From: a virus
Taxonomy: Duplodnaviria > Heunggongvirae > Uroviricota > Caudoviricetes
Length of the DNA stretch: 6,720 bases
IMG/VR virus record: IMGVR_UViG_3300029643_000047
Strand: one strand, 5' to 3'
Both the position numbers and the translations under genes were made by a program. Below are positions 259-6,720 of the stretch, piece by piece (position 1 is the first letter of the stretch; each line of letters opens with the position of its first letter). Under the pieces are notes generated by a model. It had not been told where the DNA came from and searched no databases. It was given only the letters and a program-made list of their open reading frames with translations.

Positions 259-945
259 TCACTCCTTCTCTTCTTTATCGTAGTGGAGTTGACCAATTTT
301 GATAAGAGGGCGTCCCTGAGATTTGCGGTGTAGATTGGTATCGCGCAGAGAATACACACAGCCACAATATTCCTGCTGATAGAATTTTTCGCGCTTGCTG
401 ATTTCAATCATGCGGGACGAGCCGCCCTGCTTGCGCCAGTTATAATCCCAGTACACCATGCCCGGATAATGCGCGACGGCTCGCCGCCCACAGTCGTTAA
501 CCTGCTGCATATTTTTCCAGCGTGAAATGCCCAGTGAACTGCTGATCACACTGAAACCATTTTCAGCAGCGTACAGCGCTGTCCGCTCAAAACGCATGTC
601 AAAACACATGGTACAACGGATCCCCCTCTCGGGCTCCCATTCCATTCCTTTGGCACGTTCAAACCAGTTGTCGGTGTCGTAATCAGCATCGATAAACGGC
701 ACGCCGTGTTGTTCAGCAAAGCGAATATTTTCATCCTTACGAATTAAATACTCTTTCTGAGGATGAATGTTCGGGTTGTAGAAAAAGATGGTATAGTCGA
801 TTCTCGAGGCCTGAAGTGCCTCCATCACTTCACCGGAACATGGAGCACAGCAAGAGTGCAGTAGTAGTTTGTTTGCCCCGTTTGGGAGCTCCAATTTAGG
901 CCGTTTGAAATCAGCAATAGTCATAAATATTTTTATTGGGGTCAT
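259..945 (-). CDS. queH: QueH-family (DUF208) epoxyqueuosine reductase homolog, predicted Fe-S enzyme of tRNA queuosine biosynthesis
   Basis: 228-aa ORF. The translation carries [11 protein letters not shown] near the N-terminus and EYCGCVYS near the C-terminus, the cysteine signature I associate with QueH/DUF208. Stop TGA at 261..259. Start ATG at 945..943 has no clear Shine-Dalgarno; an alternative ATG at 924..922 also lacks one, so the start is uncertain. Family assignment is from motif recognition, not a search. Confidence 0.75.
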
Positions 946-4896: not shown

Positions 4897-5373
4897 ATGC
4901 TTAGTGGTAAAGACTTAGGCCGAGCGATAGAGCAGGCCATTAACAAAAAAATTGCATCAGGAGCCGTCAAATCAAAGGCGGAAATCGCACGTCATTTCAA
5001 AGTCCAACCACCATCAATCCATGACTGGATTAAGAAAGGTTCGATAAGTAAAGACAAACTTCCAGAACTATGGCGTTTCTTTTCTGATGTGGTTGGTCCA
5101 GAGCATTGGGGGCTTAACGAATACCCCATACCAACCCCATCCACTTCAGATACAAAAAGTGAACTTTTAGACATAAACAGCCTTTATCAAGCCGCCTCTG
5201 ATGAAAAAAAAGCAATTGTGGCTTTCATCTTATCTGGAAATGCTACGGAGCCTAGTTGGGTTGATTATGACGTTCGCGCCTACATTGCCGCAATGGAAAT
5301 GAAGGTAGCTAACTATCTGAAAAATCAAGAATCAAAACGGAAAAGCCAGAACATCACCAAGACAGGAACTTAA
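4897..5373 (+). CDS. racR: RacR, prophage repressor (cI analog) with N-terminal HTH
   Basis: 158-aa ORF, start ATG 4897, stop TAA 5371-5373. The translation (MLSGKDLGRAIEQAINKKIASGAVKSKAEIARHFKVQPPSIHDWIKKGS...) matches my recollection of RacR. AGGAG lies 11 nt upstream of the ATG. The gene is divergent from ydaS and flanked on both sides by the same operator motif. Confidence 0.9.
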   Translation: MLSGKDLGRAIEQAINKKIASGAVKSKAEIARHFKVQPPSIHDWIKKGSISKDKLPELWRFFSDVVGPEHWGLNEYPIPTPSTSDTKSELLDINSLYQAASDEKKAIVAFILSGNATEPSWVDYDVRAYIAAMEMKVANYLKNQESKRKSQNITKTGT

Positions 5374-5447: not shown

Positions 5448-5508
5448 ATTAGGTTGCGCCCAAATTATTAGGCATAGCCTATTGACAAGTAATTAGGCAT
5501 TTCCTATA
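5448..5508. promoter_or_regulatory. Second operator cluster (OL-like) downstream of racR with the same half-site motif
   Basis: Site D 5467-5483 ATTAGGC ATA GCCTATT is near perfect. Site E 5492-5508 ATTAGGC ATT TCCTATA has a degenerate right half. A weak third site at 5448-5465 has a good ATTAGG left half only. Sites D and E bracket and overlap the -35 and -10 of the promoter at 5482-5510. Confidence 0.5.
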
Positions 5509-5510
5509 GT
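5482..5510 (+). promoter_or_regulatory. pL-like sigma70 promoter with consensus -35 and near-consensus -10
   Basis: TTGACA at 5482-5487, exactly 17 nt spacer, TATAGT at 5505-5510. It fires away from racR into the downstream small ORFs. The 18-bp block GGCATAGCCTATTGACAA (5471-5488) is repeated in inverted orientation at 4840..4823 inside the pR-like promoter. Confidence 0.6.
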
Positions 5511-5691
5511 TTTCCCATACCAACCCATCCCGTCCCACACAATACAGGGCAATACCTCGAGTTACCAGGCAGTGGTCAGGGGTTAAGTAGCCAGCCCGAG
5601 GCGTAAGAACATGACGGCAGGGTTCAACTTTAATAACTATGCAGCAGGTTTTTGTTCCGCTACCCCGGCGTTAAGGGGAAATGAGGTCAGC

Positions 5692-5844
5692 ATGGATACT
5701 ATCGAGCTTGGCAACAACGAATCTCTGGTATGCGGCGTGTTTCCCAACCAGGACGGCACGTTTACCGCGATGACATATACCAGAAGCAAAACGTTTAAAA
5801 CTGAAGCTGGCGCGCGTCGCTGGTTAACCAGAAACACTGACTGA
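5692..5844 (+). CDS. Small early-operon protein, 50 aa (possibly YdaF-like)
   Basis: ATG 5692 with GAGG 5 nt upstream; stop TGA 5842-5844. The ORF track's longer form (from 5611) has no Shine-Dalgarno. The length is close to what I recall for YdaF of K-12 Rac, but that identification is from memory only. It lies about 180 nt downstream of the pL-like promoter. Confidence 0.55.
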   Translation: MDTIELGNNESLVCGVFPNQDGTFTAMTYTRSKTFKTEAGARRWLTRNTD

Positions 5845-5855
5845 TGAGGTTGACG

Positions 5856-6176
5856 ATGGAATTTAAAGATTTACCAGTACCATTCCAGGAAATGGCATCG
5901 AATGTGGTTCGCTCTCAACTGGCGACTCTTGACCTGAGTACCGTAGAAAAAGAAACCATCGACAATATATCCGGTAACGTACGCCGAGCCTTTATCGGGC
6001 TGTACGAAGAGAAGCAGCTCTCTGATAACCAGGATTTACATGAAAAATACTTCCTGGATCTAATGGACATCATTGATAAGGGGTTTGGCTTGTTAATGAA
6101 AAAGAAAGGGATTCGAATAGAACCCCTTGAAAATTACTTTGCAACAAAAAGCATTAATTCTTTTGATTCAAAATAA
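5856..6176 (+). CDS. Hypothetical small acidic protein, 106 aa
   Basis: ATG 5856 with GAGG 6 nt upstream. An alternative ATG at 5844 overlaps the upstream stop (TGATG) but lacks an SD. Stop TAA 6174-6176. The C-terminal half lies in AT-rich DNA. No recognisable motif. Confidence 0.6.
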   Translation: MEFKDLPVPFQEMASNVVRSQLATLDLSTVEKETIDNISGNVRRAFIGLYEEKQLSDNQDLHEKYFLDLMDIIDKGFGLLMKKKGIRIEPLENYFATKSINSFDSK

Positions 6177-6429
6177 GAGAATTAATTACAGACTTAACAT
6201 GCTCTTTCTCATGATTGAAGCTCTCATGATTGAAAGTGCCGGGTTGAAGCGAGTCGATATAATCAACAAGACTCTGTCGTACGACTTCATTTTTATCCAT
6301 AACAGATGCAAGAAATGAAATTGCTAAAAGAGTTATATCACTACGCGCCGCAGCATGTTGCAATGCTTTATCAAAATTATTAATCTGGCGTATCAGGGAG
6401 TTAATGATTTCATCATTTTCAGTCGACAT
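6154..6429 (-). CDS. Hypothetical small protein, 91 aa, convergent with the upstream plus-strand ORF
   Basis: ATG 6429..6427 preceded on the minus strand by AGGAGGG with a 4-nt spacer; stop TAA 6156..6154. The frame stays open upstream to the window edge, but that 97-codon extension is Arg/Pro/Thr-rich, GC-rich and non-protein-like, so I call the internal start. The region is AT-rich (about 36% GC by hand count over 6181-6420). Confidence 0.55.
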   Translation of the reverse strand: MSTENDEIINSLIRQINNFDKALQHAAARSDITLLAISFLASVMDKNEVVRQSLVDYIDSLQPGTFNHESFNHEKEHVKSVINSLILNQKN

Positions 6430-6720
6430 TTCACCCTCCTGAGGGTTGGTGATTAAGGAGTTCTCCACGGGTGAGGTGGAGTGCGTGCGCCGGACACGGG
6501 TGAGCATCCGGCACTGACAGTTTACTGAAAGGATATTTCCCTGAAAAGTCAGACCATAACGCGAAAGCGCCCGGCGAGGTAGCTGGTTCATAGATAGCCT
6601 GTCGTTAAATTTTCGTCGACCGTGCGTTTCCGGTTGTGGCAATCCGCGAAATGGCGCGGCGGTAAGTATGGCGGGGTTATTCCTTCCCCGTTGAGGACAC
6701 CGAGTTGTCAGGTTGACCAT

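Follow-up and report, generated by a model that had tools for sequence, protein, structure and literature searches.

Gene organization of the locus

The DNA analysed here (the window; 6,720 nt, IMG/VR virus record IMGVR_UViG_3300029643_000047) represents a Rac/Qin-type lambdoid prophage of Escherichia coli. The subject of this study is a pair of small convergent genes in its early-left region and, above all, the minus-strand gene of the pair, which is probably the swappable cargo of a self-contained reverse cassette inside the early operon. This cassette would consist of a probable promoter, a structured 5′ leader, a Shine-Dalgarno (SD) sequence, the cargo open reading frame (ORF) and a terminator, with the leader being portable and re-used for unrelated small ORFs.

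The plus-strand gene (5856..6176; ATG at 5856, TAA at 6176) encodes 106 amino acids (aa) and has the same limits in RefSeq (WP_001435739). The minus-strand gene (6154..6429; ATG at 6429, TAA at 6154) encodes 91 aa, and the RefSeq entry WP_000102678 has the same limits and identical DNA. The two ORFs overlap at their 3′ ends by 23 bp (6154..6176). These coordinates and the overlap had been proposed in an original prediction made from the letters of this DNA alone, and they are borne out by the sequence and by the RefSeq limits. The GC contents counted by hand at that stage (about 36% and 57%) also agree with the computed values of 36.2% over 6181-6420 and 56.7% over 6481-6540. The AT-rich block itself covers approximately positions 6021-6429 (about 34.7% GC vs. 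48.3% for the whole window), so that its start lies inside the plus-strand ORF. Its junctions fall where the conserved N-terminal domain of the plus-strand gene ends, near the plus-strand stop codon and at the ribosome site, and the block marks exchanged DNA. The prediction had delimited an AT-rich module of small genes at 5692-6429. Its location behind a pL-like promoter was right, whereas its extent has to be revised: the minus-strand unit reaches to about 6548 if the leader and the probable promoter are included, and the operon continues to DicF and dicB.

Judged by its gene content and order, the studied region represents that part of a Rac/Qin-type early-left (dicBF) operon which lies next to the promoter. 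The pL-like σ70 promoter, which is the equivalent of dicBp (TTGACA-17-TATAGT, 5483..5511, plus strand), matches the consensus at 11 of 12 positions, lies downstream of racR (4897-5373 in the RefSeq annotation) and is conserved in K-12 Rac. The first gene of the operon (5692..5844, plus strand) encodes a DUF1391 protein of 50 aa, a homologue of YdfA/YdaF (phrog_751; DUF1391 family protein in RefSeq), which scored 97.8 bits with Pfam PF07151 against a cut-off of 27.3 bits; the gene aligns with both ydfA of Qin and ydaF of Rac. An in-frame upstream ATG would give a 77-aa form of this ORF (5611-5844, plus strand), but the 50-aa form with its start at 5692 is favoured by RefSeq and by the Pfam alignment, and GAGG is present 5 nt upstream of it. 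The right-hand part of the window (6430..6720, plus strand) corresponds to the 5′ portion of the DicF precursor within the dicBF transcript and is near-identical to K-12 Qin. The small RNA (sRNA) DicF was found 46 nt past the window end (L001 10366-10417, equivalent to window positions 6766-6817; 76.7 bits vs. the Rfam gathering threshold of 48 bits), which places the studied region within a dicBF-type operon. Further downstream, outside the window, dicB and a DUF1482 gene are annotated. The locus thus has a repressor-proximal promoter, the DUF1391 gene in first position, and DicF and dicB downstream on the same strand, as is typical of dicBF-type operons.

In K-12, the dicBF transcript runs from dicBp through ydfABC, dicF and dicB and is then processed by RNase III as well as RNase E (PMC10448788). 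DicF and DicB block cell division, change metabolism and protect against phage, and their control is layered and incompletely understood (PMC10448788). Neither an internal nor an antisense promoter was reported in that study, in which the plus strand alone was examined (PMC10448788).

Several E. coli strains have chromosomal prophage DNA with 100% identity to the region of approximately 1.3 kb around both ORFs, and parts of this region are carried by 4,565 of the 5,426 complete genomes. In strain GN04592, the prophage is integrated beside ompW, and the annotated order along the plus strand of the window is racR, DUF1391 protein, hypothetical protein, hypothetical protein (opposite strand), dicB, DUF1482 protein, exonuclease, excisionase and integrase. 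YdaS/YdaT-like, replication and Q-type genes lie to the left of racR.

The 106-aa plus-strand gene

The sequence comparisons identify the 106-aa gene as an ordinary gene of the early operon which is made up of two parts, a conserved N-terminal helical domain (codons 1-55, 5856-6020) and a variable AT-rich tail (6021-6176). The protein matched phrog_6937 over its full length and phrog_1363, phrog_2151 and phrog_9419 with residues 1-55 alone; all of these are PHROGs of unknown function, and they were the only matches when Pfam, PHROGs, NCBIfam and PADLOC were scanned. In the plus-strand proteins of the different slot types described below, residues 1-53 are common and the sequences diverge beyond. 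The AlphaFold2 (AF2) model shows the same division: the confidence score pLDDT is 76-86 for residues 1-55, which form an N-terminal helical hairpin, and below 58 for residues 85-106. The ratio of nonsynonymous to synonymous substitution rates (dN/dS) amounts to 0.05-0.25 in the N-terminus and to 0.24-0.5 in the tail, both being based on small counts. The plus-strand gene was detected in 726 E. coli genomes (coverage ≥80%), of which about 530 lack the 91-aa gene. The same tail was also seen together with another cargo (the 73-aa type) and with no cargo. The idea that the AT-rich half of the plus-strand gene is a mere part of an inserted minus-strand cassette is therefore only partly true.

The 91-aa minus-strand gene

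The 91-aa gene is a genuine coding gene, as the pattern of its sequence variation indicates, and its product belongs to a small uncharacterised all-helical family. Comparison with an allele of 87% identity gave a dN/dS of 0.26-0.28 at a dS of 0.43-0.49, which means purifying selection. Another allele (L005 2501-2761, E. coli JNEC-KY173) has lost one copy of the FNHES/FNHEK repeat by an in-frame deletion of 15 bp, which looks like replication slippage that kept the frame. In an exhaustive profile search of 1.84 billion representative proteins, the family comprised only 19 clusters, none of them annotated; among these are four proteins of 90-93 aa with 26-36% identity to the 91-aa protein. A word-indexed search for remote homologues did not extend the family beyond this small set. 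The 92-aa protein encoded in one of the alternative slot types (type B) is also a homologue (28% identity, E 9e-6). It would be possible to regard the minus-strand ORF, or even both ORFs, as annotation artefacts in decaying prophage DNA. The tiny size of the family, the lack of a known domain, the deletion of the gene in many prophages, which retain remnants of it, and the only moderate AF2 confidence would fit such a view. We consider it highly improbable, since it does not agree with the low dN/dS at a considerable dS (0.27 at about 0.45), the in-frame indel kept in one allele, the full-length homologues in different mobile elements, or the strong SD sequence and own terminator of the gene.

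The 91-aa protein is acidic and, according to the AF2 model (pLDDT 67.6), forms three helices (residues 2-42, 48-59 and 68-90). A single 13-residue hydrophobic stretch and no obvious membrane helices had been noticed in the original prediction; the stretch comprises residues 32-44 (ITLLAISFLASVM), and the maximum Kyte-Doolittle value in a 19-residue window is 1.43, so that no transmembrane (TM) helix is expected. The protein is thus predicted to be a soluble three-helix protein. No significant match was found in Pfam, PHROG, NCBIfam, PADLOC, PDB sequences (searched with the family profile), PDB folds and viral folds; the search of PADLOC-DB v2 gave sub-threshold noise alone (BrxA, E 0.014, 12.7 bits), and tblastn against 50,697 phage records gave no match. 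The Foldseek comparison of the AF2 models of both the 106-aa and the 91-aa protein with PDB and BFVD yielded nothing at E <0.7. Hence, profile, remote-homology and structural searches assigned neither protein to a known family, just as the reading of the bare sequence had suggested.

The position of the 91-aa gene resembles that of sieB, as the original prediction had rightly noted. In K-12 Rac, sieB lies between the DUF1391 gene ydaF and the sRNA and kil genes (kilS/kilR), faces ydaF and overlaps it by 4 bp at the 3′ end. The 91-aa gene lies in the same slot and orientation, facing the early-left operon near the DUF1391 gene, and yet the profile search indicates that its product is not SieB. 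The protein matched neither PF14163 nor any other Pfam family at E ≤1, whereas K-12 Rac SieB scanned in the same way scored 109.4 bits. SieB is an inner-membrane protein of about 160-190 aa with TM helices; the protein studied here has 91 aa and is predicted to be soluble.

Relatives of the 91-aa gene also occur in other mobile elements. In a P2-like prophage (L011, with int, C and cox), a distant relative faces an early gene with an overlap of 41 bp. In two lambdoid prophages, distant relatives lie just left of a cI-type repressor gene and face it, and another one is located in an island with a P4-type integrase, TacA1 and a type IIG restriction enzyme. In the loci L012-L015, members of the family occur without a partner of the 106-aa type.

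Upstream, the 91-aa frame continues without a stop codon through the GC-rich leader, so that an ORF of 188 aa extends to the window edge (6154-6720, minus strand), and a 145-aa version is often found in public annotation (cluster P0002 with 481 member sequences; L004 is also annotated with 145 aa). The AGGAGG sequence before the ATG at 6429 and the conserved structure of the leader argue that the start of the 91-aa form is the real one. If so, the 145-aa call should be corrected as the 91-aa gene read through its leader.

The terminator and the 3′ overlap

An intrinsic terminator of the minus-strand unit was found at 6097..6129 (minus strand). It consists of a 9-bp hairpin (AAGGGGTTC/GAATCCCTT) followed by TCTTTTTCAT, with a folding energy of −14 kcal/mol. 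The scan, which placed the site at 6129-6107 on the minus strand, gave no other terminator-like site in the 1.8 kb covered. It lies 25 nt past the stop codon of the 91-aa gene, inside the plus-strand ORF. On the plus strand, an A/T run precedes the hairpin and no T-run follows it; the terminator is thus a one-way element which, on this basis, should not stop the dicBF transcript. A hairpin with a T-run follows the stop codon in every context of the 91-aa family. In the P2-like locus L011, the corresponding hairpin shows 80.6% identity over 36 nt, and other family members have their own GC hairpins in the same place, this likeness being at the nucleotide level and not frame-specific.

The tail of the 106-aa protein shares 45% identity with the tail of an otherwise unrelated 214-aa helix-turn-helix (HTH) protein from L011, and it was considered whether this C-terminal module is a protein domain travelling with the 91-aa gene. 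This explanation was rejected, since the tblastx signal was equal in sense and antisense frames and its core was the 36-nt terminator. The conserved thing is therefore the terminator DNA, which is read through by the plus-strand ORFs.

The convergent pair recurs in other genomes and is thus not a matter of chance. The overlap, in which the original prediction had seen possible built-in antisense regulation, looks incidental: its length is 23-32 bp in other loci of the same type (type A) and varies from 0 to 131 nt across the cassette types, the plus-strand gene exists without the cargo (type D, K-12-like), and the plus-strand tail is modelled with low confidence. It may be described as a by-product of the plus-strand frame, which reads the antisense of the terminator and of the cargo ORF end up to the next stop codon.

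The two genes could alternatively form a dedicated two-gene module of the effector/immunity or toxin/antidote type, in which the variable C-terminus of the plus-strand protein would be active, the convergent protein would be its cognate inhibitor and the overlap would couple their expression. In dicBF-type prophages, the plus-strand C-terminus does switch with the cargo type: plus-strand proteins of 212-216 aa occur with a 69-aa cargo, those of 186 aa with a Zn-ribbon-like cargo and those of 106-109 aa with the 91-aa cargo. A conserved N-terminus combined with a variable C-terminus is the pattern of polymorphic toxins, the dN/dS of the tail is below 1, and two cargo types are similar to GhoS, a member of an antitoxin RNase family. 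Such co-variation is, however, expected anyway for adjacent DNA between two recombination arms, and the likeness of the tail to the 214-aa protein was traced to the terminator as described above. The plus-strand gene with the same tail is mostly found without the 91-aa gene (726 vs. 198 genomes) and also occurs with the 73-aa cargo, and the 91-aa family is partnerless in L012-L015. Both proteins are soluble and acidic and have no catalytic motif and no toxin domain. Toxin-antitoxin pairs are defined by a toxic partner and by obligate co-occurrence; these two genes occur independently, and their sequences do not suggest such a pair. We therefore regard a dedicated two-gene module as unlikely, and the view of the two ORFs as one dedicated cassette had to be abandoned. 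Convergent type I toxin-antitoxin pairs with overlapping 3′ ends are known from prophages of Bacillus subtilis (txpA/RatA and bsrG/SR4). The pair studied here shares with them the convergent units with complementary 3′ ends in prophage DNA and the possibility of an RNA-RNA interaction, but both of its genes are protein-coding, neither encodes a small hydrophobic toxin and the overlap length is not conserved.

The structured 5′ leader

The 85 nt upstream of the ATG, including the SD sequence AGGAGG (6435..6440, minus strand, 5 nt upstream of the ATG at 6429), are common to the slot types A, B and C despite their different ORFs, and the leader is recognisably conserved before the 91-aa family member of the P2-like prophage. 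This leader (85 nt; 6427..6515, minus strand) is folded into three hairpins: H1 (6514-6487), H2 (6481-6463) and H3, in which the anti-SD sequence CUCCU (6460-6456) pairs with AGGAG (6440-6436). The minimum free energy (MFE) of the window leader is −37.1 kcal/mol (z = −4.6). All 31 distinct leaders fold into H1, H2 and H3, with the SD sequence pairing with an upstream CUCC(U/A), and their MFE z-scores range from −1.3 to −6.3 in comparison with dinucleotide shuffles. The SD sequence is sequestered in the MFE folds of nearly all leaders, each sequence being folded separately.

RNAalifold applied to a MAFFT alignment recovered only part of the structure, with the H2 subtypes out of register, and per-sequence folds and explicit pair counts were added. 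In these counts, 84.9% of the cells were paired, in contrast to 35-50% with slid partners, and the value for H3 was 89%. Two pairs were changed on both sides, 36/52 (UA 15, AU 13, CG 2) and 60/82 (AU 17, UA 12), the latter being the SD/anti-SD pair in H3. In H2, two wholly different sequences occupy the same position in the two main subtypes (CUCCAC/GUGGAG and ACCACACG/CGUGUUGGU). The leader thus has a conserved helix, with covariation support, that pairs the SD with the anti-SD sequence, which is the hallmark of an SD-sequestering leader. Scored with a covariance model, the window sequence (6515-6427, minus strand) gave 101 bits, cargo-less leader copies 54-58 bits, a third subtype from the Stx phage PA2 with a cut-down cargo remnant 33.9 bits, and distant 91-aa family members about 14 bits, in the last case abutting the ATG exactly. 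No match to the model was found upstream of Rac sieB. A cmscan search with Rfam 15 (E ≤1, both strands of L001 8000-11500) returned DicF and a sub-threshold STnc100 alone and no family corresponding to the leader; nothing was found in eight other leader loci. The leader is thus a candidate for a new cis-regulatory RNA motif, and it would be directly testable as such by reporter fusions.

A different explanation of this conservation is that the leader is kept for its role on the plus strand, i.e., for processing of the long DicF precursor through RNase III and RNase E or for its stability, and that the minus-strand ORFs hitch-hike on a fortuitous ribosome site. The element indeed lies in the 5′ precursor of DicF, whose maturation needs RNase III and RNase E cuts upstream of DicF (PMC10448788), an inverted repeat folds on either strand, and about half of the leader copies, including that of K-12 Qin, have no minus-strand ORF and are highly conserved all the same. 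On the other hand, three G·U wobbles in H1 pair on the cargo strand alone (mean −16.2 vs. −11.1 kcal/mol), and for the leader as a whole the cargo strand is the more stable one in 28 of 31 cases. The SD and anti-SD sequences co-vary, and the ATG is at a fixed distance. The leader is also present in DicF-free loci (P2-like, Edwardsiella, Pluralibacter and others), and the mapped RNase III site at the 5′ end of the 190-nt DicF corresponds, by coordinate transfer, to about window position 6629, more than 100 nt from the leader. A primary role of the leader on the plus strand thus seems improbable.

The candidate promoter of the cassette

A candidate σ70 promoter (TTTTCA-17-TAAACT, 6520..6548, minus strand), which had the second-best minus-strand score in a consensus scan, precedes the leader. 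Its predicted transcription start at about 6513 lies at the foot of H1. A −10-like hexamer is found 5-9 nt before H1 in every independent upstream context, e.g., TGnTATTAT (P2-like L011 and L018), TTGAGA-17-GATAAT (L027), TGgTAAACT (L044) and TGgTAAGCT (phage PA2), and its conserved offset supports the candidate promoter. 5′ stem-loops stabilise mRNA, and H1 at the extreme 5′ end would do likewise.

Two TTTCAG repeats within a partly palindromic stretch (CTGACTTTTCAGGGAAATATCCTTTCAGTAAACTGTCAG) are present at 6520-6560 (minus strand) and conserved in all dicBF-type copies; this stretch could be a regulator-binding site. In Qin of K-12 MG1655, the segment between ydfC and dicF (L002 2046-2134, minus strand) retains the candidate promoter together with H1 and H2 (53.6 bits) but has no ribosome site or ORF. 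Activity of this candidate promoter would mean that K-12 produces an unannotated antisense RNA opposite ydfC-dicF.

The variable slot and its cargos

Alignment with K-12 Qin and Rac revealed two conserved blocks, the left one extending through the DUF1391 gene and the right one from about 15 nt upstream of the minus-strand ATG through DicF and dicB. The DNA between them is unrelated: ydfB and ydfC are found in Qin, sieB in Rac and the two ORFs in the window. Four types of this slot were distinguished. Type A (the window and L004-L006) has a plus-strand gene of 106-109 aa and the 91-aa gene with an overlap of 23-32 bp, type B (L009) genes of 133 and 92 aa with an overlap of 41 bp, and type C (L010) genes of 135 and 77 aa with an overlap of 23 bp, whereas type D (L007, L008) has a plus-strand gene of 124 aa and no minus-strand gene. 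In comparison with type D, the 91-aa ORF and its ribosome site form a clean indel of approximately 270 bp, and scraps of the ORF remain in type D. The 91-aa gene is present in 198 of the 5,426 genomes, the flanks in thousands.

Scans of sequence collections with a DNA pattern derived from the first hairpin showed that the leader is much more widespread than this gene. The window-type promoter and leader segment occurs in 3,345 of the 5,426 complete E. coli genomes (about 62%) in up to six copies. The leader was further found at 11 loci of species-representative genomes (E. albertii, Shigella, Edwardsiella ictaluri, E. anguillarum and Pluralibacter gergoviae) and in at least 120 IMG/VR contigs. 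The elements carrying it are lambdoid, Stx, P2-like and integrase-island elements; it is always located near the immunity or integration region and opposes the early operon where one is present. In L027, L014, L015, L018 and L023, the order is immunity repressor (cI), early genes, the cargo facing them and the leader behind the cargo, which agrees with the location of sieB in Rac. The ORFs that follow the leaders at a fixed distance form 13 clusters of 57-104 aa unrelated by BLASTP, in a sample biased to the 91-aa family, several such loci having been fetched on purpose. The SD sequence is kept at a fixed spacing before every cargo.

When ten further cargos were compared with Pfam, PHROGs and PADLOC, they matched PHROGs of unknown function and gave no PADLOC match, and the sole named match was a borderline one to GhoS: the cargos of 94 and 101 aa (IMG/VR contigs L075, L111 and L113) are GhoS-like (PF11080, 21.2 bits vs. 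a cut-off of 21) and both match phrog_8894. In the type V GhoT/GhoS system, GhoS acts as the RNase antitoxin.

Two loci with leaders deserve a separate description. In Edwardsiella ictaluri and E. anguillarum (L017 2181-2838 and L026), the leader is followed by a 30-aa proline-rich ORF (MRINQFGG...) and by a gene for a 156-aa protein with two predicted TM segments; a GhoS-like ORF lies further downstream in L026. The Edwardsiella locus adjoins a P4-type integrase at icd, and no match was obtained with Pfam or PADLOC. It has the look of a possible cargo of the membrane toxin or abortive-infection type. The second locus is that of the Stx-type phage PA2 (KP682371; L147 3422-3504), where the leader of the third subtype lies in antisense orientation at the 3′ end of an early gene of 147 aa with the same N-terminal domain as the 106-aa protein. 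Behind this leader is a remnant of 33 codons that is similar to the C-terminus of the 99-aa cargo, and decayed cassettes thus also occur in functional Stx phages.

Proposed function of the cassette

The features described above fit the following scheme. The RacR-controlled pL-like promoter would drive the DUF1391 gene, the 106-aa gene and then DicF and dicB. In the opposite direction, the cassette would be read from the promoter at 6548-6520 through the 85-nt three-hairpin leader and the cargo ORF to the one-way terminator at 6129-6097. We suppose that the cassette is transcribed in the lysogen, while RacR holds the early promoter off, and that sequestration of the SD sequence in H3 gates translation of the cargo. 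When the early promoter fires, convergent transcription over approximately 416 nt (6098-6513) would lead to interference and to double-stranded RNA, by which the cargo would be shut off. The cassette may also lower the amount of leaky read-through that reaches the toxic genes for DicF and DicB. The cargo protein would then act as a lysogenic-conversion factor. By analogy with the position of sieB, superinfection exclusion or defence may tentatively be named as the most likely class of cargo function, and an accessory exclusion-like role with antisense interplay is plausible by the same analogy; sieB of P22 is controlled by the cis-antisense sas RNA (PMC12197685).

The antisense RNA could itself be the point of the unit, i.e., a cis-antisense regulator or roadblock which limits DicF/DicB or tunes the prophage switch, with the ORF being secondary. 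Over about 416 nt immediately upstream of DicF, the dicBF transcript is fully complementary to the cassette, leaders without a cargo have persisted, the products of dicBF are toxic and under layered control (PMC10448788), and P22 sas and other phage cis-antisense RNAs provide precedents. This does not explain why the cargo ORFs are under purifying selection, why the 91-aa family is conserved at the protein level where there is no DicF, or why a strong SD sequence is present at a fixed spacing before every cargo. There is little probability, in our opinion, that the antisense RNA is the main product, and with regard to the conservation at the protein level an RNA-only role and a spurious ORF both appear unlikely.

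Several points weigh against a swappable cargo gene in a reverse cassette, the reading which we prefer. The promoter, transcript and protein of the cassette are predictions known here from sequence alone, and the match of the window promoter (TTTTCA/TAAACT) is weak, being no better than several chance-level sites. As many as 72 of the 141 leaders, those of K-12 Qin and type D among them, lack an ORF behind them and are still 95-99% identical, which fits either a plus-strand role in the DicF precursor or recent shared ancestry. The covariation in the leader represents few independent events (two or three subtypes) in an alignment of closely related mobile DNA, and the conservation of H1 is partly circular, as much of H1 was fixed by the search pattern. 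The tail of the 106-aa protein is partly constrained (dN/dS 0.24-0.5) and co-varies with the cargo type, which may reflect a functional link. Finally, no cargo has a demonstrated function and none of those scanned matched PADLOC.

A still broader view is that the promoter and leader form a widespread, hitherto undescribed plug-in platform for prophage accessory genes in E. coli, Stx phages, P2-like elements, Edwardsiella and Pluralibacter. The 13 cargo clusters would be placed under one translational switch and in antisense orientation within the early lytic operon, cargo and DicF/DicB output would be reciprocally coupled to the prophage state, and the cargos would represent a new pool of single-protein exclusion, defence or host-takeover functions. 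This extension is speculative and, taken as a whole, rather doubtful.

Comparison with known systems

The closest counterpart of the 91-aa gene is sieB of Rac, lambda and P22. Besides sharing its slot and orientation, sieB is a prophage gene directed against an operon silent in the lysogen, as the 91-aa gene would be if it is expressed there. Antisense RNA control is documented for P22 sieB/sas (PMC12197685) and would be proposed, by analogy, for the 91-aa cassette. In contrast to SieB, the 91-aa protein is half the size, has no membrane helices and no homology to it and is predicted to be a soluble helical bundle, and the cassette leader was not found upstream of Rac sieB with the covariance model. 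The dicBF operon of Qin (ydfA-ydfB-ydfC-dicF-dicB-ydfD) shares the repressor-controlled promoter, the DUF1391 gene in first position, DicF, dicB, the DUF1482 gene and a near-identical DicF precursor region, and the leader sequence is present in K-12 Qin as well, on the opposite strand (53.6 bits). It differs in that ydfB and ydfC replace the 106-aa gene and that the leader is not followed by a minus-strand ORF.

The 91-aa cassette is similar to phage morons in its atypical GC content (34.8% vs. 48.3% in the window), in having its own terminator, and in its presence or absence between conserved genes among similar prophages; a promoter of its own would be a further shared trait if the weak candidate site is active in the lysogen. 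Unlike morons, it lies antisense inside an operon and not between operons, and its probable promoter, leader and SD sequence are conserved and re-used for many cargos. Conserved flanks with many alternative unrelated cargos are also typical of the accessory or defence hotspots of P2/P4-like elements, and members of the 91-aa family are found in a P2-like prophage by cox/C/int and beside a P4-type integrase, where TacA1 and a type IIG restriction enzyme are also encoded. The cargos described here are, however, small individual proteins (57-104 aa) for which known defence models gave no match, and it is an RNA leader that forms the conserved flank.

A reverse gene of the moron or sieB type within an early operon is thus of a known kind, whereas the repeated use of a structured leader and the wide range of cargos seem to be novel. 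No antisense promoter or cassette, hotspot or leader at dicF/ydfC was found in the open-access literature, in a limited full-text search whose negative outcome is no proof of novelty. If our interpretation is true, a very common and unannotated slot of E. coli prophages swaps small proteins of unknown function behind a shared RNA leader, and an extra antisense layer has to be added to the control of the dicBF operon. The leader would then be a sequence handle for harvesting candidate exclusion, defence or host-modulating proteins.

Other features of the prophage

Between DicF and dicB, an STnc100-like element was detected (L001 10415-10624, equivalent to window positions 6815-7024) with 35.7 bits, which is below the gathering score of 47 bits. 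STnc100 was linked to PasD sRNAs of pathogenic E. coli in a 2026 preprint (doi 10.64898/2026.05.13.724894). In the left part of the window, between replication genes and hokD, a 228-aa ORF (259-945, minus strand) is annotated as epoxyqueuosine reductase QueH. A tRNA-modification gene such as that of QueH is an unusual phage cargo.

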